This document shows positions 5,887 through 53,030 of a stretch of DNA of 64,000 nucleotides, piece by piece. The notes under the pieces were generated by a model. That model saw nothing but the letters and a program-made list of their open reading frames with translations. It did no database searches and had not been told where the DNA came from. Position numbers and translations under genes: made by a program. This DNA comes from a virus, in the UHGV virus genome UHGV-0247568, one strand, 5' to 3'. Position 1 is the first letter of the stretch, and each line of letters begins with the position of its first letter.

Positions 5887-6864
5887 TCAGATACCAAATG
5901 CTTCAAATAGAATTTCTTCACTTCTATCCATTAAATAAGATTCAGTTGTTGAAACATCCTCATGGTGAGCAATTAGTTTCAATACTTTCAAATCAAGCTG
6001 ATCTTTTCCTAATTCTTTTAGTACGTGATGTGTACCATTAGAATAATTATCTAAAGATGAGTGGCGGAAACAATGTGGGTTAATATCAACAACTTCTCCA
6101 GTTTTTAATTCCAACACTTTTCTAAAGTATAAACAAAAATTATATAATGATTCATATGATCTTGCTCTGATATTTTCGCCTTTTCCAGCTACCCATAAAG
6201 AGTCAATATTATCATTTCCGCGTTGATCAAACCATAATTTAGCTATTTCTCTTGTGCGATCAAAATATAAAAGTTGGAATTTTTTACCACGTTTACCAAT
6301 AACTTCATTAGTCATTTTTGATTCTAAGAAGTTTTGTTTTTTAACTTGTAAAATTTCATTACGGCGAGCAGCACTATCATATGATAAAGATAAATATAAA
6401 GCCATTTCATATTTTTCTTCTTCTAATAAATGTTCTAAAATAATATCAATTTGCTCATCAGTTAGGAAAACAATATCTCTAACTTTTTCACCTTGAATTC
6501 CTTTAATTGCCCGCATAACATTTTTATCATAATCGTATTCGTCTTCATCATCTTCAGCAAAAGCTAATAAATTTCGAATTGAACTTTGAAAACGATTAAT
6601 TCTAGCTGCACTTGTACCCATTTCTTGCATTGATAAGAAAAATGTTCGAAACATGCGTTTCTTAAGGTCTAATATCGATTTATTTCCAGCATTTTGAGCT
6701 ATCCAACAGAAAAAGCCTTTAATGTCAGCAGTATATTGGTAAATAGTTTTTTCAGCTCGACCTTTACTTTTAAGTTCTAAAATATAATCTTCTAATAACA
6801 TTTTGTTTTCCGCATTAACTTCTTCCCATATTTTTTCATCAAATAAATTATTGCGTTTTGCCAT
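5887..6864 (-). CDS. int: tyrosine recombinase / phage integrase family protein (XerC/D-like size, 325 aa)
   Basis: C-terminal catalytic signature HCFRHS (HxxR) and HHEDVSTTESYL (catalytic Tyr). N-terminal SAM-like core-binding region. Confidence 0.7.
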   Translation of the reverse strand: MAKRNNLFDEKIWEEVNAENKMLLEDYILELKSKGRAEKTIYQYTADIKGFFCWIAQNAGNKSILDLKKRMFRTFFLSMQEMGTSAARINRFQSSIRNLLAFAEDDEDEYDYDKNVMRAIKGIQGEKVRDIVFLTDEQIDIILEHLLEEEKYEMALYLSLSYDSAARRNEILQVKKQNFLESKMTNEVIGKRGKKFQLLYFDRTREIAKLWFDQRGNDNIDSLWVAGKGENIRARSYESLYNFCLYFRKVLELKTGEVVDINPHCFRHSSLDNYSNGTHHVLKELGKDQLDLKVLKLIAHHEDVSTTESYLMDRSEEILFEAFGI

Positions 6865-6932
6865 ATCAATTTCTCCATTCTTTATTAAATATATGTAAAA
6901 AGGAGAGCGTTAACTCTCCTTAGTTTTTACAA

Positions 6933-8075
6933 TTAAAATCCCCATCCCCAGGTATTAGCTGGATTATTATCGTTAGGGCCAATTGCTACATAGCTACGTC
7001 CACCACCATAGTTAATATATGTTAACCATACATAACCATTAGCAACAACATAACCATCATATGTGAATGACATTCCTGCATTGTAGTAGTCTAATGCTGG
7101 GCTGTTTGGATCAACATCACCAGAAACTGGCAATTGGATAGATGTTGTGAAAGTTCCGTAAGCAGGATAAATAGTTGCAGTATTTTTGATTGGTGCTGCT
7201 GGTTTATTTGGATTCCAAATTTCAGCGATGTCGCCATCATTTGCATATCCTAATAATTTACCACTGTTACGAATTTCATATAAGTTTTTACGTCCATCTA
7301 ATTTCTTAGTGATTGTTCCAACTTGTGTCCATAATGTATCCGCATTGATGTGTTGACCAATCGGTGCGTCTGGGTTTTTGTAGATTGTTGTGAAACGAAC
7401 ATTATCTCCGACTTTATATCTAGGTTTATTCGGTTTAGCAGGTTGATCAGGTTTGTTTGGTACATTAGCTGTAGAATCACTAGAAACTCCATTTGCCAAA
7501 TCTTGTGCTAATTGTGCTTTACTAATACCCATTTCGGCTAAATATCCATAAGGATCTTGGTGATCGCCCCAAATATTATCAGACACCCATTTATGTGTTT
7601 TAATACCATTTCCAGGTTGGTCCAACGTTAATGGAATACCAAAATAATTAGCAGCATCGCGAGCTAAAGAGATATATGCTTTATAATTCTTTTTAAATAA
7701 AGCAGGATCATGGGTGTGTTGTAATTCAATTTGAACTGGTGCATATGGGTTAGCATTACCCGCTCCCCAACTTACGATTCCCCATTGACCAACGCGATAA
7801 TCAATTCCACCATCACCGATAATGTCTGTTGTATATGCGTTAAACCAATTTCTTTTCATGTAGGTCGCTTCATTTCGGCCAGTTGCTGTCTCATTTGCTG
7901 TTTCGTGTAAAATGATATAGTTTGGTGAAGCTGCATATCCGGCGCCCTCACCTGGAGCTAAATTAAATTCATTGTTAACGGTATAATCTGCAGCTTCAGC
8001 TTTATCTACTGCTCCAAAACCTAATCCAATCATTAAAGTTCCAGCAATTGCCATAAATAATTTACTTGCTTTCAT
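6933..8075 (-). CDS. endolysin: N-acetylmuramoyl-L-alanine amidase (Amidase_2/PGRP-like) with an N-terminal Sec signal peptide and a C-terminal SH3b-like wall-binding domain
   Basis: MKASKLFMAIAGTLMIGLGFGAVDKAEA|AD has the n-h-c regions of a signal peptide. Amidase_2-like block (ILHETA...GYH..., Zn-binding His/Asp). SH3b-like GW/YG-rich C-terminus. Terminator hairpin aaggagag-ttaacg-ctctcctt after the stop (6893-6925). Confidence 0.75.
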   Translation of the reverse strand: MKASKLFMAIAGTLMIGLGFGAVDKAEAADYTVNNEFNLAPGEGAGYAASPNYIILHETANETATGRNEATYMKRNWFNAYTTDIIGDGGIDYRVGQWGIVSWGAGNANPYAPVQIELQHTHDPALFKKNYKAYISLARDAANYFGIPLTLDQPGNGIKTHKWVSDNIWGDHQDPYGYLAEMGISKAQLAQDLANGVSSDSTANVPNKPDQPAKPNKPRYKVGDNVRFTTIYKNPDAPIGQHINADTLWTQVGTITKKLDGRKNLYEIRNSGKLLGYANDGDIAEIWNPNKPAAPIKNTATIYPAYGTFTTSIQLPVSGDVDPNSPALDYYNAGMSFTYDGYVVANGYVWLTYINYGGGRSYVAIGPNDNNPANTWGWGF

Positions 8076-19778: not shown

Positions 19779-20030
19779 TTAAAAGAAGCTTACTTTATCG
19801 ATTGGTACTAAACCAACTGCTTCGGCTTTTCCTCTAGCCAATTTTTTCTTACGTCTTTTAGCTGCTTTTTCATCTTGCATTGCAACGTGAACTTCAGCTA
19901 GGTCATTTATTTTTTCCATTGAGCTATCCCAGAATTCTTCTTCTGTTAACCCGATAACTTTTCGGCCTATATAATATAATTGAGACCAATCAAAAGTTAC
20001 GGGCTCAGCTGGGTGTATTAGTCTTTCCAT
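19779..20030 (-). CDS. tail assembly chaperone, downstream (gpT-like) ORF
   Basis: Small ORF between the gpG-like ORF and the TMP. Basic KRRKKKLARGK C-terminal segment. Overlaps the upstream ORF in the +1 frame. Confidence 0.45.
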   Translation of the reverse strand: MERLIHPAEPVTFDWSQLYYIGRKVIGLTEEEFWDSSMEKINDLAEVHVAMQDEKAAKRRKKKLARGKAEAVGLVPIDKVSFF

Positions 20031-20337
20031 CAGCTCCTAACAACTCTGTCAGTGCCTCTGATAAGCGCTCTAAATCGTCAATGCCGATAATATCTCCAAC
20101 TTGTTCAGTTGTGAAATTTTTTCCAGGGTTACCAGCATTTAGTGCTGCAGTTGCAATCGCGATCATGGATTCAATTTGTCCGTCTTGAATTTCTTCTAAT
20201 GCTTTATTAATATCTCCATATTGTTTTTCTAAAAAATATAATGCGTTTAAGTTAAATTTTAATGTTAAAGTTTGGTCGATTCCTGAAAGATAAATTGATT
20301 TTCCTTCATTTTTTAAATTGTGTGCTGAGACTACCAT
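20005..20337 (-). CDS. tail assembly chaperone (gpG-like)
   Basis: 110-aa acidic protein lying between the major tail protein and the TMP. Confidence 0.5.
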   Translation of the reverse strand: MVVSAHNLKNEGKSIYLSGIDQTLTLKFNLNALYFLEKQYGDINKALEEIQDGQIESMIAIATAALNAGNPGKNFTTEQVGDIIGIDDLERLSEALTELLGADGKTNTPS

Positions 20338-20459: not shown

Positions 20460-21101
20460 TTAACCACCAATTGTGGTGGTAGTTGTTGTCGTAGTTGCTT
20501 TAGTGGTTGTTGTAGTTGTCACAGGATCAGTTGTAGTTGCTCCGTAAACTTTCTCAAACCATGCTTTAATAACTTCTTTATCAGCACCTGGTGCATCCTC
20601 GTTAACTGAAGCTCTCCAATCACCATTGAACACAGTTGGTAAGAATGTACCAGTAATTGTTGTAGTTTGGAACGTGATAGAATCTTCTTTTGTTTGGTAA
20701 GAATCTTCACCCACACCAAATGAACCTTTATACAATACTACGTATTTGTAAGTTCCATTTGATTTTAAAGAACGGAAAGCTAATGCTACACGAGGAGCAA
20801 CTTTATTAACGTTGTCGTGTACTACACCTTTTTCGTCAATTTCGATACCCATTAAACGAGCAACAACTTCGTCTTTAATGTCTGCTGTTTCTAATTCAAC
20901 TTCAATTGAGCTGATTGTTTGGTTAGAAATTAGAGCAATATCGTCCGCATAGAATGCGTCATCTGATGTTGACGGTGAAATTGAAGCACTAACAGCAGGA
21001 GCGATCTTAAACGGTGCTCCATATGCTAAATTCCCTTTTTCGTCATTTTTTAATTCGAATGCATATAAGTCACTCAAACCAATACGTACTGTATCTTCCA
21101 T
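20460..21101 (-). CDS. major tail protein with C-terminal poly-Thr tail (…TTTDPVTTTTTTKATTTTTTTTIGG*)
   Basis: 213-aa protein upstream of the chaperones. The last 25 codons are almost all ACN Thr codons, in frame. Confidence 0.7.
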   Translation of the reverse strand: MEDTVRIGLSDLYAFELKNDEKGNLAYGAPFKIAPAVSASISPSTSDDAFYADDIALISNQTISSIEVELETADIKDEVVARLMGIEIDEKGVVHDNVNKVAPRVALAFRSLKSNGTYKYVVLYKGSFGVGEDSYQTKEDSITFQTTTITGTFLPTVFNGDWRASVNEDAPGADKEVIKAWFEKVYGATTTDPVTTTTTTKATTTTTTTTIGG

Positions 21102-22868: not shown

Positions 22869-23756
22869 TTATTTTTTAACTTTTTTAATCGCTTGGATGT
22901 ACTTATATGAGCAAAAATCTTTAGAAATATGTGAAAAATCATCAAAAAATGGTGTATTTTTAACATATTTTCCTTTAAAAAATAGCTCTTTTCTGTCCTC
23001 AGTGACTCCTGCGTTGTGAAAAATCTTATATTTTTCCCAATTTTCAATTGGATCTGTTGCCCAATTGAAGATAAAATCATCAGAAGTTAGCGGTTTATAA
23101 TTAAATAGAACCATATTCCAGCACTGAGACCACATTTCTGCTGTCCAAATTTGTAAATTTGTATCAATTGTTGCAAAATAACGCCAGAGTTTATTAGAAT
23201 CGTGATAAACTTTTTCCCAGAACTCTTTTTTTGGCTTATTTACTAAAACTTGTGCTCCTAGGTGCAGTCCTAGGTGCTCGTTCAGCTGATCTTCTGATAT
23301 TCCTATAATGTCTAACATTTTATTTGCAATATGAGGACCATTTTCGCAACCTTTTATATAATCTAAAGAAAGATAACCAGAACAATCTGAACCGATCCAT
23401 TCATTATCTTTTAATTGAGGAATATTTGGCATTTCTCTAAAGATAACATCAGAATCAATATAAAGAAATTGTTCTTTTTCCATTTCTGGATTCTCTTCTA
23501 AAAATTTCCACCATAAATATGGTCGAATAGAAGAGATATATCCTTTATATTCTCTATTATCTTCATATCGATAAATAGAAATGTGAGGATATTTTTGTTT
23601 TAACCTTTCAGAAATTGAAGGGTCAAAACTAGCAAATAATACATAAATATCTTTAATATTATGCTCTAATAAATTTGTGATTGCAACTTCTAATTCCCAT
23701 TCGAAACGAACTATTTCTGGTTGGGCAAATAATACTTTCATTTTTCTAGTTCTCAC
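22869..23756 (-). CDS. GT-A fold (GT8-like) nucleotide-sugar glycosyltransferase embedded in the head-to-tail gene block
   Basis: Hydrophobic-hydrophobic DxD motif FLYIDSDVIF. Upstream YISSIRPYLWWKFL resembles the GT8 'ayaRlfiPellp' motif, and downstream GAQVLVNKPKKEFW resembles the GT8 'NsGVllinl..wr' motif. Good RBS aaaggtgag. Confidence 0.5.
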   Translation of the reverse strand: MRTRKMKVLFAQPEIVRFEWELEVAITNLLEHNIKDIYVLFASFDPSISERLKQKYPHISIYRYEDNREYKGYISSIRPYLWWKFLEENPEMEKEQFLYIDSDVIFREMPNIPQLKDNEWIGSDCSGYLSLDYIKGCENGPHIANKMLDIIGISEDQLNEHLGLHLGAQVLVNKPKKEFWEKVYHDSNKLWRYFATIDTNLQIWTAEMWSQCWNMVLFNYKPLTSDDFIFNWATDPIENWEKYKIFHNAGVTEDRKELFFKGKYVKNTPFFDDFSHISKDFCSYKYIQAIKKVKK

Positions 23757-23924
23757 CTTTCAATTTCTAATTTTAACAATAAAAGTGAGCAATATTCTAA
23801 ATTAACGACCCGTTGCTCTCGGAGTCTACCATAAATATATATGTAAATTGAAGATGGACGAATTAGCATCCACCTTCAATAGTGAAAAATTATGTTTCAT
23901 ACTCAACCTACCAGGACGCCAACA

Positions 23925-24064
23925 CTACCCACCGGGGGTGACGGTGGTAGTTGTTGTAGTCGTCGGTTTAACCGTTGTCGTCGTCGTAGTTGTTGAAGTC
24001 GACGTCGTTGTAGTGGTTGTTGGTTTGACAGTAGTTGTCGTTGTTGTAGTAGGCTGAGTTGTTA
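23925..24064 (-). other. poly-Thr coding frame (…KVTTQPTTTTTTTVKPTTTTTTSTSTTTTTTTVKPTTTTTTTVTPGG*) in the -1 frame right after the capsid stop; candidate -1 frameshift extension of the capsid protein
   Basis: The frame opens only 9 codons before the capsid stop and has no ATG/GTG/TTG. The junction reads gca-aca-gcA-AAG-TAA, an A_AAG slip site next to a stop. The encoded sequence closely resembles the in-frame tail of the major tail protein. Confidence 0.35.
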
Positions 24065-25264
24065 CTTTGCTGTTGCCACTACTAAAGCGTTAGGATTGTA
24101 AACTTCTCCATCCATGTAAGTGTCTAAGATAGATAATTGTCCACCAGCTAAAGCTTGTGTTGTATCTTGTGTTACGTTAATCAAGTTCATACCTTTTTTG
24201 ATCAACATACCATAACCAGCTTGGAAGTTACCAAATACAATTTTATCTGCATTTTCGCCAGTTAAAACATCAGATACGTGTACTGGGCATCCAAATAGAG
24301 AATATCCAGGTTTACCGTCAACTAATCCACGGAAGATTAAGAATGTTCCGTCACCGTCTTTTAATTGCATAACTTTGTTGAACATTGGACGGCTCATTAC
24401 CCACATAGAACCTTCTAAATATCCTGGGTTTAAAGTACCGTAAATGTTCAATAAGTCTGGCACATCGATAGCTTTAGCGACATCAAGAGCTAAAACATTT
24501 TTATCGCCAATTACTGGACGGAATGCTTCGTCTTCGTTTTCGCCATCTTTAGGTCCAACTAAGATTCCACGTTCAATTGTTTTAGCAACAGAACGAGCTA
24601 AGCGACCTTGAGCATAACTAACAATATCAACACCAGAATCGTTGATCAATTGTTGAGTTAATTGAATTGCTGCACCAACACGTTTTTGGTTAAGTGTTAC
24701 TGCTTTCAATTTAGGTTGTAATTTGTTTGCGTCTACAGTTTCACCGATAAAACCTTCGTCAAAGTTACCGTCTTCACGAGCGATTTTCAAATTACCAGTT
24801 ACAGATGTGAATTTACGAGCTGCTTCAAACACAGGTGAAGTTTCGCCTAATAATTCAACAATTTCATTGTGAATTTGTGTAGGTACTAAAAATTCTCCTA
24901 ATGGATTTGCGTTGTTCGCAGTTGTATTTTCACTGTTAGAGTAAGCAATATCACGTAATTCTTCCCCTTCACGACGACGTAAGAATTGTTCCATGCCGCG
25001 TAATTCGACTTCTTTTGTAATTTCTTTTTCCATCTTTGTTTCTCCTCCGATTGTTTCGACATCTGCATCAGCTAATGAACGAACTTCTTTAATTTGTTTG
25101 ATAGACGCATCTAAATCTGCGACTTCGCTTTTAATTTCTGAAATACGACTTAATTCACTTTCATCAAAAGCACGAGTTTCTGCTTCAACTTTATCAGCAA
25201 CTTCGCTCATTTCTTGAACTAATGCGTTGCGTTTTTCCAACATTGCTTTTAAATTAATTTCCAT
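24062..25264 (-). CDS. major capsid protein (HK97 family)
   Basis: 400-aa ORF directly after the protease/scaffold gene, with the length and character of HK97-fold capsid proteins. Confidence 0.8.
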   Translation of the reverse strand: MEINLKAMLEKRNALVQEMSEVADKVEAETRAFDESELSRISEIKSEVADLDASIKQIKEVRSLADADVETIGGETKMEKEITKEVELRGMEQFLRRREGEELRDIAYSNSENTTANNANPLGEFLVPTQIHNEIVELLGETSPVFEAARKFTSVTGNLKIAREDGNFDEGFIGETVDANKLQPKLKAVTLNQKRVGAAIQLTQQLINDSGVDIVSYAQGRLARSVAKTIERGILVGPKDGENEDEAFRPVIGDKNVLALDVAKAIDVPDLLNIYGTLNPGYLEGSMWVMSRPMFNKVMQLKDGDGTFLIFRGLVDGKPGYSLFGCPVHVSDVLTGENADKIVFGNFQAGYGMLIKKGMNLINVTQDTTQALAGGQLSILDTYMDGEVYNPNALVVATAK

Positions 25265-26432
25265 TCTCTGGAACCTCCATAATTTTATTATTTTCTAACC
25301 AAGCTCTAACTTCTGCTTGTACATCAGGCTTTTTCGTGGTTGTTGTCGTTGTTTCTGGCTCAGCTGCTGTTTCCGCTTTACCTTCTTCAACTTTCGTTTC
25401 GTCAACTGGTGTTTCTTCCGCTTTTTGTTCAGTTTCGTCAACACGAGTTTCTTCACTCGGTTCTTCAACTTTAGCCTCAGCTTTAGGCTCACCATTTTCG
25501 TCCTCAACAACGGCTTTTGTACCGTCTTCAGTTTTTTCAACTTTAGCTTTTTCTTCAGTAACAGGTTCTTCAACCTTTTCTTCAGTTACTTTTTCTTCAA
25601 CAGTTGGTGTTGGTTCAGTTGGTTGGGCTGGTGCTGCAGCAGCTGCTGTGGGGTCCATTGGTGGAACTTGTGCGCTTGCAACTTGTGAAACTTGTTCCAT
25701 TACCTGTTTCGCCATTTCCAATCCATCAAATGCGGACTTATCTACAATTTCTTGTAATAATTTATTTGTGTCAGCTTGATTCATTGCTAAAGTTGAAATA
25801 GCATCATACAACATTTTTGGTGTTACTTCCATATTGTCTGTATTCAAACCATTTCCTCCTATAAGAGCTCTAAACTCCAAATCATTCGGAATTTCAACGT
25901 CAGCTACTTCCATACCACGTGCCTCCAATAAAGTAGTTGGATATGCGGGAGTTTTTAGTGCTGAAACTTCAAATAGTTCAATTTCACTAATAGTTCGAAG
26001 TGGCATTCCGTCTGCAGCTAAAGACCAATCTTCATTTAATACTTTCATACCAAAAGAAAGACCTTTAATAATTCCGTCTTTTACTAATACATATAAGTCT
26101 CGTCCGTAACTTGTTGGAGACACAGTTGCTTCAAAATAGAGGCCAACTTCGTCTTCTTCCAATTTTAACGAGCCATTTGCAGTAGATGCTAAAATCTTTT
26201 TAGTATCATGATCGGCAAGTAAATCGATACTTTCTTTTAAGCGTTTTGCTTTTGCAATTGCATTTCTGAAAGTTCCTGGAGCAATTACTTCTCTCCATTT
26301 TTTCTTACCTTCTTTACCAAGGATGTGACTAGATGCGTCAGTTGCTACATATCCTTGCAATTTCATTTCTTTCGACTCTTCATCAACATCATTGATGTTC
26401 AAATCAAGAGCACGAACTTCAATTCCATCCAC
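25254..26432 (-). CDS. prohead protease (HK97 gp4-like) fused to an acidic, scaffold-like low-complexity C-terminal region
   Basis: The N-terminal 180 aa resemble HK97-family prohead proteases. The C-terminal 200 aa are E/K/T/P-rich and contain a TTTTTT run (…ETTTTTTKKPD…). Confidence 0.65.
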   Translation of the reverse strand: MDGIEVRALDLNINDVDEESKEMKLQGYVATDASSHILGKEGKKKWREVIAPGTFRNAIAKAKRLKESIDLLADHDTKKILASTANGSLKLEEDEVGLYFEATVSPTSYGRDLYVLVKDGIIKGLSFGMKVLNEDWSLAADGMPLRTISEIELFEVSALKTPAYPTTLLEARGMEVADVEIPNDLEFRALIGGNGLNTDNMEVTPKMLYDAISTLAMNQADTNKLLQEIVDKSAFDGLEMAKQVMEQVSQVASAQVPPMDPTAAAAAPAQPTEPTPTVEEKVTEEKVEEPVTEEKAKVEKTEDGTKAVVEDENGEPKAEAKVEEPSEETRVDETEQKAEETPVDETKVEEGKAETAAEPETTTTTTKKPDVQAEVRAWLENNKIMEVPENGN

Positions 26433-29466: not shown

Positions 29467-29504
29467 AAGTAAACCTCCAATTAGATAGCTTTTATTAAGC
29501 TAAA

Positions 29505-29576
29505 CAGGTCGTAGAAGATTCGAACTCCTATCACTTGGGTTGGAGCCAAGTATGTTGCCAATTACACCAACAACCT
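29505..29576 (-). tRNA. tRNA-Trp (anticodon CCA)
   Basis: Hand-folded cloverleaf on the minus strand. Acceptor AGGTTGT/ACGACCT (one G-U). D-stem GTGT/ACAT with a GG-containing loop. Anticodon stem CTTGG/CCAAG with loop CT-CCA-AC (U33, A37). T-arm AGGAG-TTCGAAT-CTTCT. Discriminator G, no encoded CCA. Confidence 0.7.
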
Positions 29577-29826
29577 ATGTGAAACTAAAAAGTTTCACTA
29601 AAAAAAGAAAAAAAGGAAGTTATGACTAGAAAAGTAGAAAGTAGAAAGGTGTTCAGAGAACACAATGATAGCCAATCGGAATCGCACCGATTCAAAAAGG
29701 CTTGTCAACCTTAATGTCTACTAAGAAGCTACCGCATTTAATGTTCCACCTTTAAAGGCAGTGGGACACCTATTTTAAAGTTCCACATTTATGGTAGTGG
29801 GTTACCATATGTCTCAATTGCTGATA

Positions 29827-49038: not shown

Positions 49039-49675
49039 ATCAATTATTGATTTTTTTGAAAAAATTAGGCCAAAGAATAATGCAGAGTTAATCATGGAAG
49101 CGGAAGTGACCATGATTAACAATAAAATAAGAGAATTAAAAAACGAGATTCAATCAGCCCGTTTTGACTCTAAAGAACTCAAAAAATCACTTATCGAATT
49201 AAAAAACGATATTGAAGGTTTTTCAGAAAAAACCTTAAATAGCGATGCAAATCAAGAGAAAAACGATGATGAAGAACAATGTGAAAGTTTTCCTTCGTTT
49301 GAAAGAGGATTTTTGAAAATCTCAATGAGTTTGGACTTCGAATTTATTGAATGCATTAAAAGTGGTCTAAACAATTTAAACGGTAAAACCATTTTATATA
49401 GTGGAGATATTACTGAAGCAATTTTAAAAAATATTGTACCAAAAGTTGAAGGCTATGATTTATTTGACATAGAATTTGTAGACGATATTTTTGAAGGCTC
49501 CATGGTGAAAAAAGTTAATTTTTATCTAATTAAAGTATTGGATGAATCAGTAATTTATGGTGGAGACGTTGAGTTACAAAGGTATAAAAATTATTATGGT
49601 GGAGTAACTACAGAAGATATTAAAAAAAATATGCAAAAATTTTCGGAGGCATTCAAAGATGATAAAAACAGGTAA
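49031..49675 (+). CDS. hypothetical protein (214 aa; track start 49022)
   Basis: ORF overlapping the HNH stop. Confidence 0.45.
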   Translation: MFKSIIDFFEKIRPKNNAELIMEAEVTMINNKIRELKNEIQSARFDSKELKKSLIELKNDIEGFSEKTLNSDANQEKNDDEEQCESFPSFERGFLKISMSLDFEFIECIKSGLNNLNGKTILYSGDITEAILKNIVPKVEGYDLFDIEFVDDIFEGSMVKKVNFYLIKVLDESVIYGGDVELQRYKNYYGGVTTEDIKKNMQKFSEAFKDDKNR

Positions 49676-49826
49676 AATTGAAAAAGAAAAGTTGAATTTT
49701 TCATTGCATAAAAATGATAAAGGCGAAATTATTCGAGTGCCTTTAAAAAATAAAAAAGTTGTGAGTCGTCAAGAGCGTGTAAAAAATAATAAAATTAAAA
49801 AAGCTTTGAAAAAACGCAAAAAATAA
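49659..49826 (+). CDS. small highly basic protein (55 aa, K/R-rich), not in the track
   Basis: RBS ggagg 9 nt before the ATG. Overlaps the 3' end of the upstream ORF in the +1 frame. Confidence 0.3.
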   Translation: MIKTGKIEKEKLNFSLHKNDKGEIIRVPLKNKKVVSRQERVKNNKIKKALKKRKK

Positions 49827-49827
49827 G

Positions 49828-49856
49828 TTTACAAAAATTAAAATAGTTGATATAAT
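49828..49856 (+). promoter_or_regulatory. class-B promoter
   Basis: TTTACA 49828-49833, TATAAT 49851-49856. Confidence 0.6.
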
Positions 49857-49926
49857 ATAAATATAAATAATGATTAATGAAAATCATTAAAAATAATATA
49901 AAAGAAAAGAAAGTAGGAATTTAATT

Positions 49927-50895
49927 ATGGCAGCAAATTCATTGCGTGAAGCAGCAAATGCAATCGAGGTAGTAGGAACAGTTAAAAAAGTTGAGCTTGA
50001 AGAAAAAACAAGTCAAAAAACAGGTAAAGAAATGATTATGGGTCACATTTTAGTTGAAGTTAAAGAAAGTGCTGAACGTATTCATAATATTAAAGTGAAA
50101 GTATTTTCAATGAAACTTAATAAAAAAGGTGAAGTATCAGGACTTTATAAAGGTTATAAAACTGTTAAAGATGAATGGAAATCTGGCGATCGTGTAAAAA
50201 TTACAGGTTCAATCGGGTTGCAAGAATATTACTCACGTTCTGGAAATTTAGTTTCATTTAATGAAATGAAAGCTCTATTTTGTAATCGATTGGATGAAGG
50301 TGATCAAACACCAGATAAAGCAATTGCAACAGTTGAAATGGTTGTTAAAGGTATGACACCAGAAATTGATGCGGAACAAATTCCAACAGGAAATTTAATT
50401 GTTGATGCATTCACAGTTGGATATAATTCAACAATTATTCCATTACAAAACTTAATTATTAATGGTGAATTAGGTCAACAATTCCAAACTATGTATGCGC
50501 CGAATAGTACTGGTAAAATCACAATGAAAATTAATAATTATTCTACAGTAAGTAAAGAAGAAACACCACAAGTTAGCCATGGTTTTGGTTCAACTGAAGT
50601 TGTTGAAGATACTATTGTAAAAGATTATACAAATAATTTAGAAATTATCGGTGGCGATTTACCATATCAAGATGGTGTTAATAATTACTCAATGGAAGAT
50701 ATTGCACAAGCTGATAAAAATCGTGAACTTGTATTACAAGAATTGCAACAAAATGCTTCTGCAGCTCCACAACCAACAGCTTCTGGTTTTGGAACAACAG
50801 GTACACAGACAAGTGACCCAATGGCAAGCGCATTTACAAATGCACCGGTAAATAATGAAGACCCATTTGCAAATGGTGGAACACCAGCATTTTAA
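49927..50895 (+). CDS. putative single-stranded DNA-binding protein (OB-fold-like N-terminus, Gly/Thr/Ser-rich tail ending …EDPFANGGTPAF)
   Basis: Weak. Position within the replication genes, an N-terminal beta-rich region and an acidic DPF-containing C-terminus reminiscent of SSB tails. Confidence 0.3.
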   Translation: MAANSLREAANAIEVVGTVKKVELEEKTSQKTGKEMIMGHILVEVKESAERIHNIKVKVFSMKLNKKGEVSGLYKGYKTVKDEWKSGDRVKITGSIGLQEYYSRSGNLVSFNEMKALFCNRLDEGDQTPDKAIATVEMVVKGMTPEIDAEQIPTGNLIVDAFTVGYNSTIIPLQNLIINGELGQQFQTMYAPNSTGKITMKINNYSTVSKEETPQVSHGFGSTEVVEDTIVKDYTNNLEIIGGDLPYQDGVNNYSMEDIAQADKNRELVLQELQQNASAAPQPTASGFGTTGTQTSDPMASAFTNAPVNNEDPFANGGTPAF

Positions 50896-50911
50896 TAAAA
50901 TAGACAACACT

Positions 50912-50950
50912 TCGGTGCTCATGTCGATCTAGAGGAGATGAGTCTCCTCT
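50912..50950 (+). terminator. intrinsic terminator ctagaggagat-gagt-ctcctctag + T6
   Basis: Perfect 10-bp stem plus T-run. Confidence 0.65.
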
Positions 50951-50977
50951 AGAATTTTTTAAAAAGGAGAAATATGT

Positions 50978-51460
50978 ATGGAAGAAGAAAAAAAATTAAC
51001 ATTAGAAGAATCTTTAAAAAAATTTATTAAAGAATCAAAAATGTCAATTATTGATAAAGTTGAAGATGCACAAACTGATTTAGAAAAAGTTATTATTTTA
51101 GAACAAACATATAATGTGATGATTGAGCAAGCTGAAGCATTTATGAAAATTTGTGATTTTACTCAAACATTACGTAGTGATATTAATAATAAAAATAAAG
51201 CATTAGGTGAAAGAAACAATTTAATGGGAATGGTTGAAGTTGGGCTATTTACAAAAATGGATGAAAATAATAATATTATTGCTGATCCTGATTCACCTTG
51301 TTTTGAACAAATTGATTGGGACGCTTTAGAAATTCCTTTTGTAAAACGATTAGCTAATAAATTAATTGAAAAATTACAAGATAAAATTGATAGCGAACAA
51401 TTATTAAATCGTGAAATTACAAGTGATGATATTAATTTAATTGATTGGAGCAAATTCTAA
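50978..51460 (+). CDS. hypothetical protein (160 aa)
   Basis: RBS aaaggagaaatat then ATG. Confidence 0.45.
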   Translation: MEEEKKLTLEESLKKFIKESKMSIIDKVEDAQTDLEKVIILEQTYNVMIEQAEAFMKICDFTQTLRSDINNKNKALGERNNLMGMVEVGLFTKMDENNNIIADPDSPCFEQIDWDALEIPFVKRLANKLIEKLQDKIDSEQLLNREITSDDINLIDWSKF

Positions 51461-51888
51461 TGGAAAAAAGATTTATTGATAGTTATAAAGCAGGTTTTGA
51501 ACTATTTCAAAGCGCAAGTAAAAAAATTGCAATTTTTGAAAAATATTTAAATGAAGAAAAAAATAAAGATTTATTGAAATTATTAAAAAATAATTTCACA
51601 GACTATAAAAATGATTATTCAAAAATATTGGAATTAGGTTCAGCAGCATATAGTCGTATGGAATTATCTCGAAAATTAAGCGAAGCATATCACCAACAAG
51701 CTATCGCGTTAAAAATGATCATGTATCCCATTGACGAAATGATGGAAATCCATGGTGATAATGATTTAATCCGTTTCCGCGAAACTTTATGTGAGTCCAT
51801 TGTGGATGAATTGCAACTCCATGGAGACGTGTCAGAAACTCGTTTTATGGAATTAGTCGCAGAAGCAATGCGAAAAAATCTGATATAA
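51460..51888 (+). CDS. hypothetical protein (142 aa; the TAATG-coupled start is preferred over the track start at 51445)
   Basis: ATG overlapping the upstream stop. Confidence 0.45.
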   Translation: MEKRFIDSYKAGFELFQSASKKIAIFEKYLNEEKNKDLLKLLKNNFTDYKNDYSKILELGSAAYSRMELSRKLSEAYHQQAIALKMIMYPIDEMMEIHGDNDLIRFRETLCESIVDELQLHGDVSETRFMELVAEAMRKNLI

Positions 51889-51891
51889 TAG

Positions 51892-51920
51892 TTTACAAAA
51901 TATACTTTAATTGATATAAT
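51892..51920 (+). promoter_or_regulatory. class-B promoter
   Basis: TTTACA 51892-51897, TATAAT 51915-51920. Leader …agaaagtaggaa. Confidence 0.6.
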
Positions 51921-51959
51921 ATAAAAGTAAAAAGAAAAAAAGAAAGTAGGAATTTAATT

Positions 51960-53030
51960 ATGATTGATATTTTTAATGTGGAACCTGTAAAAGTGAGTGT
52001 TAACCCAGCGGATTATTCAACATTTATCTATGGTGTTCCAAAAATTGGTAAAACAACATTGGCGTATGATTTATACAAAGAACGTGGTTTATTTTTAGCA
52101 ACTGAAGATCGTCACAAAACTTTAGCTGGTGCTAATGTAATTCGAATTACTTCATGGGTTGATTATTTACAAGTTATGGGACAATTAAAACAACCAAAAG
52201 CGAAAGAATTATATGATGTTATCATTGTCGACACTGTTGAAAATTTATATAATATGCTAGAAAAATTTGTTGCAGCAAAATATAAAGAAAGTACAGTTGG
52301 AGAACGAAATGATTTATGGGGTAAAGACTGGACAGATTTGAAAAACATGTGGAAATCTGGTTTAAATATGATTGGTGAAGCGGGTTTCGTTCCATGTTTT
52401 ATCGCACATGCTACAGAACAAATGGTACAAATTCCAGCGTCTGGTGTTTTAAAATCAGATTTGGAAGGTGCACAAGTTGAATTAAAAACTGTAAAAGGTG
52501 AAGATGGAAATACTTTAGAAGTTTATGAATTCCAAAAATATATGCCAGATTTAAAAGATAAAGTTTTTGCTCCAATTAATCGAATGGTTGATAATATTTT
52601 ATTTGCAAATACAACATTAGATGTTACAACTGGTGAAGAACAACGCGTACTTTATTTACGTGATACATTACAATGGATGGCTGGTTCAACATTTAAAAAT
52701 ATTGTACCAATTGTAAAATTAAGTGCTGACAGTTATATGAAAGCAGTCGAAGCAGCTTTAGGAACAGTAGATAAAAAAGATACTAAAAAATCTGAAGAAC
52801 GTAAAGTTAAACAAGAATTAGATTTTAATTCAATTCGAGCAGAAGTGATGAAATATGGTGCAGCATTTAATGAAGCTAAAAAACTAGAAGTATTAAACAA
52901 AATTAGTGCAGATATTTTCGGTATCGGAAATAAAATTACAGATGCTGATGAAAGTCAGGTTGAATTATTAGCAGCAGCACTTGAGGAAATCAAGAAAAAA
53001 GCAAAACAATTAAATATTACAATTAAATAA
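51960..53030 (+). CDS. RecA-fold P-loop ATPase (AAA_24 / Sak4-like phage recombination protein family)
   Basis: Walker A GVPKIGKTT near the N-terminus, Walker B-like IIVDTVE. A long C-terminal extension. Confidence 0.45.
   Translation: MIDIFNVEPVKVSVNPADYSTFIYGVPKIGKTTLAYDLYKERGLFLATEDRHKTLAGANVIRITSWVDYLQVMGQLKQPKAKELYDVIIVDTVENLYNMLEKFVAAKYKESTVGERNDLWGKDWTDLKNMWKSGLNMIGEAGFVPCFIAHATEQMVQIPASGVLKSDLEGAQVELKTVKGEDGNTLEVYEFQKYMPDLKDKVFAPINRMVDNILFANTTLDVTTGEEQRVLYLRDTLQWMAGSTFKNIVPIVKLSADSYMKAVEAALGTVDKKDTKKSEERKVKQELDFNSIRAEVMKYGAAFNEAKKLEVLNKISADIFGIGNKITDADESQVELLAAALEEIKKKAKQLNITIK

Follow-up and report, generated by a model that had tools for sequence, protein, structure and literature searches.

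A probable programmed -1 frameshift at the last sense codon of a phage major capsid gene, and its poly-Thr payload beside a predicted glycosyltransferase gene

Several phages make two products from one capsid gene, for example T7 (10A/10B), T3, the Listeria phages A118 and A500 (-1) and PSA (+1) (PMC5009743). In phage A2 of Lactobacillus casei, -1 frameshifts have been experimentally established for both the capsid and the tail gene (Garcia 2004, Rodriguez 2005, cited in PMC5009743). The A2 capsid gene ends with ACC_CCA_AAA_GCG_TAA and the tail gene with GCC_CCA_AAA_GCG_TAG, and the -1 frames read PKSV... into immunoglobulin-like (Ig-like) sequence. A shorter site, A_AAG, is documented as a minimal -1 site in B. 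subtilis cdd (A_CGA_AAG) and IS1222 (G_CGA_AAG), and heptamers of the C_CCA_AAG type are highly shift-prone in E. coli (PMC5009743). Modification of the virion by glycosylation is a separate subject: in the mycobacteriophages Che8, Corndog and Myrna, phage-encoded glycosyltransferases were demonstrated to modify the major capsid protein (Freeman et al. 2023, as described in the sources that cite it). Here we analysed UHGV virus genome UHGV-0247568, a stretch of 64,000 nucleotides (nt) that is called the window below, in which a threonine-rich -1 frame overlaps the end of the major capsid gene and a predicted glycosyltransferase gene follows. To our knowledge, phage-encoded virion glycosylation has so far been shown for mycobacteriophages only. 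The overlap is best explained by programmed -1 frameshifting of ribosomes on the last sense codon of this capsid gene, and we consider this explanation likely.

The capsid gene end, its -1 frame and their conservation

In this part of the window all genes lie on the minus strand. The junction consists of the following features.

25264..24062, minus strand: major capsid protein gene, HK97-type, 400 amino acids (aa), TAA at 24064..24062 (Pfam Phage_capsid PF05065, E=5.6e-42)
24062..24068, minus strand: shift site A_AAG with the adjoining TAA (GC-A_AAG_TAA), read directly from the sequence
23925..24068, minus strand: -1 frame extension, comprising the shared Lys AAA, 46 codons (VTTQP...TPGG) and TAG at 23927..23925

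As the initial annotation stated, the capsid open reading frame (ORF) ends with ...ALVVATAK* (...GCA ACA GCA AAG TAA), and the -1 frame has no start codon: ATG, GTG and TTG are all absent, and so are CTG, ATT, ATC and ATA. The location given for this frame was correct except for its 5′ coordinate, which is 24089 and not 24088. From stop to stop (24089..23925) the frame has 54 sense codons, and it opens 8 codons ahead of the V that follows the shared Lys. Read from the Lys codon, its product is K-VTTQPTTTTTTTVKPTTTTTTSTSTTTTTTTVKPTTTTTTTVTPGG*. The extension had been put at ~53 aa and ~5 kDa; the corrected values are 46 residues, 31 of them Thr, and 4.59 kDa when unmodified, so that the fusion would have 446 aa. 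The predicted junction peptide of the extended capsid is ...NALVVATAK followed by VTTQPTTTTTTTVK.

The slip site beside the stop codon was also found as described. A_AAG at 24068..24065 allows re-pairing in the -1 frame, in which tRNA-Lys would move from AAG (24067..24065) to AAA (24068..24066). The GCA before AAG is unable to re-pair in this frame. Therefore, the likely event is a slip of a single tRNA in the P site, with UAA waiting in the A site. Only 2 of the 26 Lys codons in the capsid gene are AAG, and the slip codon is one of those two. The Thr codons of the tract are mixed (ACA 10, ACT 9, ACG 8 and ACC 4); the capsid body uses ACA and ACT only. Because all four Thr codons are interleaved, the tract appears to be kept at the protein level and not as a simple DNA repeat. 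In a six-frame scan of the 64-kb window, poly-Thr tracts were found at two places only, the capsid -1 frame and the C-terminus of the tail-tube protein. On the plus strand, a Val-rich ORF of 69 aa (23848..24057; …VVVVVVGLTVVVV…) is the antisense of the capsid tract. Its equivalent in the vipetofem RefSeq record is annotated as hypothetical protein KNU92_gp130, with 'repeat_region' features there; the annotation of this ORF as a protein is probably a mis-annotation.

By sequence comparison, the window is a Vipetofemvirus (Andrewesvirinae). The identity of the region is 98% with the Enterococcus phage nattely, 96% with vB_EfaS_140 and 93% with vipetofem, VFW, VPE25 and vB_EfKM29, and the capsid protein is 98-100% identical with those of vB_EfaS_140, nattely and VPE25. 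The Denvervirus phages 9183, TJE4 and Planchet are ~77% identical to the window over the capsid. A protein search with the capsid gave ~120 relatives (53-100% identity), nearly all of which end with ...K, ...KA, ...KL or ...KKA; an IMG/VR scan using the capsid gave 4 loci only.

We looked among the relatives for genomes without the frame or with stops inside it. Both the frame and a slip site at the stop of the capsid gene are retained in the window itself, in 6 Vipetofemvirus records, in 3 Denvervirus-type genomes and in 4 metagenomic relatives (85-60% capsid identity). None of the poly-Thr-carrying relatives examined, which reach down to 60% capsid identity, has lost the frame. The six Vipetofemvirus relatives all have the junction GCA_AAG_TAA unchanged, and their -1 tails have 45-47 codons. 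In the three Denvervirus-type genomes, the capsid ends with ...AAPKG* or ...AAPKA* and the -1 frame reads SVEP/RVEP-(T)n...AEG* over 32-40 codons.

The substitution pattern was then compared between the window and VPE25, whose DNA is 87% identical over the tract. The differences at codon positions 1/2/3 of the -1 frame number 1/2/19, and 18 changes are synonymous vs 3 non-synonymous. The protein identity is 41/43 in the -1 frame vs 28/43 in either other frame. Furthermore, indels in the poly-Thr tract are multiples of three without exception. Thus, a -1 ORF that overlaps the gene end and has no initiation signals of its own is under purifying selection in that very frame.

Comparison of the relatives also revealed three slip motifs, each sited at the capsid stop (numbers beginning with L are our handles for loci).

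A_AAG_TAR: the window group (identical in 7 Vipetofemvirus sequences), L068, L025 and L032
C_CCA_AAA_GCG_TAG (GGG for GCG in phage 9183): Denvervirus, L069, L070 and the Lacticaseibacillus prophage L027
A_AAA_AAA_(GCG/TTG)_TAG or A_AAA_AAA_TAG: L071 (GCG), L073 and L072

For example, L025 (a Listeria fleischmannii prophage) and L032 (a prophage in an Anaerorhabdus metagenome-assembled genome) have unrelated capsids and the same CAAAGTAAC junction, which leads to K-V-T-T. Weiss et al. reportedly found in 1987 that a stop codon adjoining a slippery run favours shifting. A Shine-Dalgarno-like stimulator upstream of the slip site was considered and dropped, as only an unconvincing 4-nt GUGG was seen. 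The conserved frame, the third-position substitutions and the conserved slip motifs in relatives support the initial annotation in its reading of a -1 shift at A_AAG-UAA. The frameshift is thus well supported by comparison; that it takes place, and how efficiently, is inferred.

Payloads, poly-Thr tails and the adjoining predicted glycosyltransferase gene

More distant members of the capsid family differ in what the -1 frame encodes.

L068 (85% capsid identity): -1 payload of ~45 aa poly-Thr, then a Big_2 Ig-like domain (Pfam match); glycosyltransferase gene present
L069 (68%), L070 (64%) and L071 (60%): -1 payload poly-Thr; glycosyltransferase gene present
L072 (56%): -1 payload a short T/P-rich tail; glycosyltransferase gene absent
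L073 (53%): Big_2 Ig-like sequence pattern (ITLNKSTLSLEIG...); glycosyltransferase gene absent
L074 (55%): neither slip site nor extension; glycosyltransferase gene absent

In L068, the Big_2 domain starts upstream of the sole ATG of the frame. Therefore, this domain can be made solely within the -1 product. The extension of the window has no Ig-like (Big_2) fold, because its 46 aa with 31 Thr leave too little room for the domain. The extension and the enzyme are both missing from phages whose capsids are ~40% identical (6ec and PMBT8 of Staphylococcus, Lenus and Ldl1 of Lactobacillus). Within the capsid family, poly-Thr and the enzyme gene are thus both present (window group, L068-L071) or both absent (L072-L074, 6ec, PMBT8, Lenus and Ldl1). 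Judged from these sequences, the frameshift junction seems to be ancestral in this lineage of capsids, with a payload that looks modular. Two further arrangements were seen in these relatives. In Lenus (L013, 6269..6838), an ORF with an FN3 domain lies after the capsid gene. In L072, a 161-aa Big_2 ORF comes after the tail-tube gene (region 6015..7188), whose end is ...PTPKL*; this may be a tail frameshift of the A2 kind.

Two other genes of the window bear on the payload.

22869..23741, minus strand: glycosyltransferase gene, 290 aa from ATG, GT-A fold and GT8-like by predicted structure; candidate enzyme for O-glycosylation of poly-Thr
20460..21101, minus strand: major tail (tail-tube) protein gene, with a poly-Thr tail at 20537..20463 (Pfam PF04630 Phage_TTP_1, PHROG 88)

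The ORF list starts the glycosyltransferase at GTG 23756. Because homologues begin MK... and AAAGGTGAG is suitably spaced upstream of ATG 23741, this ATG is the likelier start. The protein belongs to PHROG 4417 (function label: unknown). An AlphaFold2 model built from a 56-sequence alignment had a predicted local distance difference test score (pLDDT) of 96.1 and a predicted template modelling score (pTM) of 0.92. The best 50 PDB matches of this model in Foldseek are all GT-A glycosyltransferases, for example WbbM (1e-9), LgtC, the UGGT catalytic domain, GT6 alpha-3GalT/ABO and glycogenin, and D101 and D103 (IDSDV, a DxD motif) are invariant in the alignment. The nearest structural neighbours are retaining GT8 enzymes with DxD, among them the protein-directed glycogenin, Skp1 alpha-GalT, UGGT and GlyE. 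From the model, the capsid-adjacent enzyme is probably a GT8-like, retaining DxD glycosyltransferase. A match to NCBIfam lpxB (E=0.18) and polyubiquitin matches made of summed weak repeats were judged spurious.

We also considered whether the capsid-adjacent enzyme is the DNA glucosyltransferase of these hypermodified phages. This candidate was rejected: vB_EfaS_140 has a separate T4-like DNA beta-glucosyltransferase cluster, outside the window, so that the capsid-adjacent enzyme is not needed for DNA modification. The cluster (vB_EfaS_140 49226..52983; L075 33226..36983) contains the T4-like DNA beta-glucosyltransferase, a thymidylate-synthase-like enzyme and a 'nucleotide sugar synthetase-like' protein, and the relatives that encode these proteins have restriction-resistant DNA. 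The sugar-nucleotide enzyme of the cluster might supply the virion glycosyltransferase as well.

The in-frame tail of the major tail protein, to which the capsid extension had initially been likened, ends with ...TTTTTTKATTTTTTTTIGG*. A poly-Thr tail is present on the tail-tube protein in all glycosyltransferase-carrying Enterococcus relatives and absent from 6ec, Lenus and Ldl1, which have no glycosyltransferase. To extend the comparison, one genome per species was scanned with a 17-sequence enzyme alignment, and 50 enzyme loci were obtained, mostly from Firmicutes (Lacticaseibacillus, Lentibacillus, Listeria, Enterococcus, Staphylococcus aureus, Lactococcus, Halobacillus, Gracilibacillus and others). 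Poly-Thr-tailed frames were found on the strand of the enzyme at 41/50 loci and on the opposite strand at 0/50. At 33/50 loci a poly-Thr tail ends <=250 nt upstream of the enzyme gene. The other 9/50 loci, among them two contigs of 1.0 and 2.3 kb, have no poly-Thr tail. Representative tailed ORFs encode Phage_capsid (~390-600 aa), Phage_TTP_1 (~210 aa), ~106-aa head-module and ~120-aa mucin-like proteins. The tails are mostly in frame; a -1 shift is required in L025, L027 and L032, and the capsids of these three resemble in-frame-tailed capsids over their C-terminal regions (L025 and L054, L027 and L062/L063, L032 and L030).

The capsid and tail-tube tails of one phage usually share their last residues: TPGG/TIGG in the window (20463..20537, 23928..24065), TSHA/TSHA in L063, EAQ/EAQ in L062, TKG/TKG in L030 and GGA/GGA in L054, with loci L037 and L048 also in this set. 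The shared ends suggest gene conversion between the tails or a common C-terminal recognition element. In prophages of Lentibacillus, Oceanobacillus and Pseudogracilibacillus, a protein of 113-122 aa is encoded directly upstream of the glycosyltransferase (L019 7642..8010, L022 7642..8001, L023 7642..8010 and L024 7660..8001). Its small N-terminal domain is followed by mucin-like (T)nKP/EP repeats over ~60 residues, for which L019 gives a weak match to Pfam Mucin, and the protein may be a dedicated glycosylated decoration protein.

The initial annotation had proposed that the extension might be a glycosylation target. This idea is strengthened by the adjoining GT8-like gene and by its co-occurrence with poly-Thr tails on capsid and tail-tube proteins, and it is still a prediction. 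The tail may be O-glycosylated, and the biological benefit may be adhesion, shielding or colloidal stability. A live alternative, which we regard as rather unlikely, is that the frameshift is real and the tail is unglycosylated. The tail would then be a bare hydrophilic and flexible brush or linker, and the enzyme would act on host wall polysaccharide, teichoic acid or another virion protein. Three observations fit this alternative: the enzyme has no Pfam or NCBIfam assignment, the poly-Thr of L068 is placed as a linker ahead of the Big_2 domain, and nine enzyme loci show no poly-Thr tail. However, the tight linkage in the 50 loci and the perfect match of presence and absence inside the capsid family argue against it. 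Moreover, the structural neighbours of the enzyme include protein-directed ones, of which GlyE acts in the serine-rich-repeat pathway, and, given the separate DNA beta-glucosyltransferase cluster, the enzyme is not needed for DNA modification.

RNA structure, other readings of the junction and the proposed mechanism

Under a second alternative, the poly-Thr frame is the decaying remnant of an in-frame tail, severed by a 1-nt indel and not usefully translated. Many other capsid families have an in-frame tail, a frameshift mutation could yield the present arrangement, and the longer product is not reported in the annotations examined. However, the arrangement persists from 100% to 60% capsid identity with one of the three slippery motifs always at the stop, and a dead frame would gather stops and frame-breaking indels, not tract indels that are always multiples of three. 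In addition, ~85-90% of the substitutions are third-position and synonymous, and C_CCA_AAA_GCG_TAR is the very motif of the phage A2 frameshift sites. We consider this alternative very improbable.

Next, the RNA was folded from the slip site to 60 nt beyond the extension stop. Three structural features were predicted.

24047..24059, minus strand: 5′ arm (ACUCAGCCUACUA) of a predicted long-range helix, from 6 nt after the slip codon, pairing probability ~1.0
23901..23913, minus strand: 3′ arm (UGGUAGGUUGAGU) of the predicted helix, just beyond the extension stop
23847..23880, minus strand: 14-bp hairpin downstream of the extension, -17.7 kcal/mol

The helix was assessed by duplex energy against shuffles; its arms have no positional homology between genera in the MAFFT alignment. 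The duplex of the window has -23.9 kcal/mol, vs shuffle means of -10.2±2.8 and -13.1±2.8, and was equalled by 1/500 and 0/500 shuffles. The architecture is common to all Vipetofemvirus sequences, and in EfKM29 a U-to-C change converts a G.U pair to G-C. Denvervirus has the same arrangement with other arm sequences (GAGCCAAC/GUUGGCCU; -15 to -18 kcal/mol, reached by 0-16/500 shuffles), and so has L069 (-22.7 kcal/mol, reached by 0/500 shuffles). Across the Enterococcus phages, the helix is long-range with -15 to -26 kcal/mol (0-16/500 shuffles reach this). In L025, L027, L032 and A2, local hairpins are found instead, starting at +6 to +8. In most of the ~20 folded sequences, a helix with a pairing probability of 0.9-1.0 begins at +6 to +8 nt; L073 and L069 are less clear. 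In the window, the stop codon UAA immediately follows the slip codon and the predicted helix starts from +6. The non-Thr codons that open the extension (QP or EP) overlap the 5′ arm. From the folding model, this overlap is consistent with a frameshift stimulator at canonical spacing, a role that the helix may have.

The 14-bp hairpin was not called by a terminator scan and lacks a proper U-run; it could represent a 3′ structure of the mRNA or a weak terminator. Denvervirus has a different hairpin at the equivalent position. Right after the hairpin, the motif TTTACATATA (~23838..23847, minus strand) is invariant in 10/10 Vipetofemvirus and Denvervirus-type sequences with diverged flanks. This motif might belong to a promoter of the glycosyltransferase gene and the neck genes.

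These structures raise a third alternative, namely that the region is conserved as a non-coding RNA or DNA element (a structured 3′ UTR (untranslated region), a terminator or a spacer). The region folds better than shuffles (z = -5.1), and the helix arms and the downstream hairpin are conserved. However, the ~110 nt of unpaired A/C-rich sequence between the arms shows codon-periodic substitution and protein conservation in one frame, and we give this alternative slightly less credit than the decaying remnant. RNA structure and coding are compatible in this region, and probably both apply. Least credible of all is a poly-Thr peptide made by separate non-canonical initiation, stop read-through, a +1 shift or transcriptional slippage: although the runs of seven A in L071-L073 make RNA polymerase slippage conceivable, the window has three consecutive A only, which is too short, the -1 frame has no ATG, GTG, TTG, CTG or ATH and no Shine-Dalgarno-like sequence, read-through (QLSLLQQRQ...) and a +1 shift (NNSAYYNND...) would lead into poorly conserved frames (28/43), and the zero frame stops early in Planchet.

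Several points weigh against a programmed frameshift with a glycosylated product. A_AAG alone is a low-efficiency site and the preceding GCA does not re-pair, so the yield may be very small. ACN repeats leave all three frames open and openness alone is weak evidence; therefore, the case stands on the substitution pattern and the slip motifs. The proposed stimulator is a thermodynamic prediction with a ~135-nt loop, and in L070 and L071 the equivalent duplex is no better than shuffles. None of the eight annotated records examined has a joined or frameshifted capsid coding sequence, and the VPE25 and vB_EfaS_140 papers do not mention a capsid frameshift. In the literature searched, proteomic data on VPE25, nattely or vB_EfaS_140 did not turn up. 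Finally, the sequence of the glycosyltransferase gave no Pfam match at E<=0.01 (Glyco_transf_8 included) and no sequence relative in PDB, and thus has no sequence-level family.

For the programmed frameshift, we propose the following mechanism. Peptidyl-tRNA-Lys would stand on AAG in the P site, with the slowly decoded UAA in the A site. A fraction of the ribosomes would slip one base back, the tRNA re-pairing with AAA, and would then read GUA ACA ACU..., adding the 46 residues up to the UAG at 23927..23925. The slip would probably be aided by the helix, whose 5′ arm lies 6 nt past the slip codon and whose 3′ arm lies beyond the extension stop, so that its loop would be the entire A/C-rich and unstructured extension. 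The virion would then contain mostly capsid subunits derived from the 400-aa product, together with a minority that carries a C-terminal mucin-like poly-Thr tail; the minority share is suggested by the behaviour of such sites. By analogy with T7 10B display and with A2, the capsid C-terminus would be exposed on the surface. The downstream GT8-like glycosyltransferase would probably act on two acceptors, the capsid tail and the in-frame tail-tube tail, and the outcome would be a partly glycosylated head and a glycosylated tail.

A wider proposal, which we make tentatively and hold somewhat below an even chance, is that a mucin-like poly-Thr tail and a GT8-like glycosyltransferase form a mobile cassette, which glycosylates the heads and tails of many Firmicutes phages and prophages, including model and candidate therapeutic Enterococcus phages such as VPE25. 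In one capsid lineage, this cassette would have been inserted at an ancestral -1 junction of the A2 type, whose cargo is otherwise an Ig-like domain. The fraction of glycosylated capsid subunits would be set by recoding, and an unusual long-range helix would act as the stimulator and loop out the whole extension ORF.

Some other features of the window should be mentioned. Its sole tRNA gene is tRNA-Trp (CCA) at 29504..29577 (minus strand), so that no phage tRNA-Thr or tRNA-Lys bears on the decoding of the tail or of the slip site. The prohead protease ORF (25254..26432, minus strand; Peptidase_S78, 392 aa) overlaps the capsid start by 11 nt. Its C-terminal half is long, E/K/P/T-rich and of low complexity with a T6 run included (…EPETTTTTTKKPD…), and is probably a fused scaffold. 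An overlapping pair of ORFs of 110 aa and 83 aa (19779..20337, minus strand) lies immediately upstream of the tape-measure gene, at the position of the tail assembly chaperones G/GT; around GGA_AAG_ACT, the second ORF is in frame +1 with respect to the first.

Significance and comparison with described systems

For E. faecalis and E. faecium, VPE25 and its relatives serve as model phages and as candidates for therapy. A second capsid species missing from the annotations, together with a surface that is probably glycosylated, would affect immunogenicity, adherence to mucus or cell wall, stability and the engineering of capsid display. The association at 41 of the 50 loci predicts that virion glycosylation is common in Firmicutes prophages (Listeria, Lactococcus, Lacticaseibacillus, Staphylococcus and halophilic bacilli), and it names both a candidate enzyme family (PHROG 4417, without a Pfam family) and its acceptor. 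The junction is also of interest as modular recoding, in which a conserved frameshift site has interchangeable payloads (Ig-like, poly-Thr plus Ig, or poly-Thr alone), and as a candidate case of a long-range frameshift stimulator in a bacterial system. In the open-access papers searched, we found nothing on poly-Thr or threonine-rich capsid tails with glycosyltransferases, on the enzyme family of PHROG 4417 or on a frameshift-controlled acceptor in Firmicutes phages.

On the enzyme side, the window protein is nearest to retaining DxD structures of the GT8 type, as are GlyE of the PsrP system of S. pneumoniae and glycogenin, and its candidate acceptor resembles a long Ser/Thr repeat. The serine-rich-repeat pathway starts with a sugar attached by the GT-B enzyme GtfA/B. 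In contrast, no GT-B first-sugar enzyme is present here, and the window enzyme is not a member of Pfam Glyco_transf_8 by sequence.

The mycobacteriophages Che8, Corndog and Myrna share with the window a phage-encoded glycosyltransferase, which in the window is assigned by predicted fold. As reportedly found by Freeman et al. in 2023, the tail-tube subunit is modified there too, and C-terminal regions are the sites. In the window, the capsid (through a -1 shift) and the tail tube (in frame) carry poly-Thr tails as candidate acceptors, which is similar to Che8 and Corndog. However, the mycobacteriophages have Actinobacteria as hosts, and their glycosyltransferase genes, as far as the citing sources describe them, lie near the right genome end and not inside the head-tail module. 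Their acceptors are in frame on all subunits, with no control of stoichiometry by frameshifting, and glycosylation has been shown there whereas it is predicted in the window.

Among frameshift sites, cdd and IS1222 have what is proposed for the window, a single tRNA-Lys that re-pairs from AAG to AAA, and the cdd shift yields an extended protein, as the predicted shift here would. The cdd shift has been described as incidental; in contrast, the site in the window is conserved, abuts the stop and leads into a conserved ORF. T7, T3, A118, A500 and PSA have, as is predicted for the window, a minor capsid product with a C-terminal extension on the surface. Their slip sites and stimulators are different, and their extensions are Ig-like or of other kinds, none of which has been described as poly-Thr or linked to a glycosyltransferase.

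The closest system is gp5A/gp5B of A2. In both phages, the 3′ end of an HK97-type capsid gene has a known or predicted -1 shift, no more than one codon from the stop, that gives or would give a C-terminally extended minor form, and a structure is predicted to start a few nucleotides downstream. Furthermore, the A2 motif C_CCA_AAA_GCG_TAR recurs in Denvervirus, L027, L069 and L070, and L073 and L068 carry the same Ig-like (Big_2) kind of payload. The differences are as follows. The window site is a minimal A_AAG that abuts the stop and not a heptamer; the payload is 46 aa of low-complexity poly-Thr and not a folded Ig-like domain, and a glycosyltransferase gene follows it; the tail-tube tail is in frame and not frameshifted; and the predicted stimulator is a long-range helix. 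Thus, compared with the known capsid frameshifts, the new elements are the mucin-like payload and its link to an enzyme in many Firmicutes prophages, together with the modularity of the junction and the candidate stimulator of long range.

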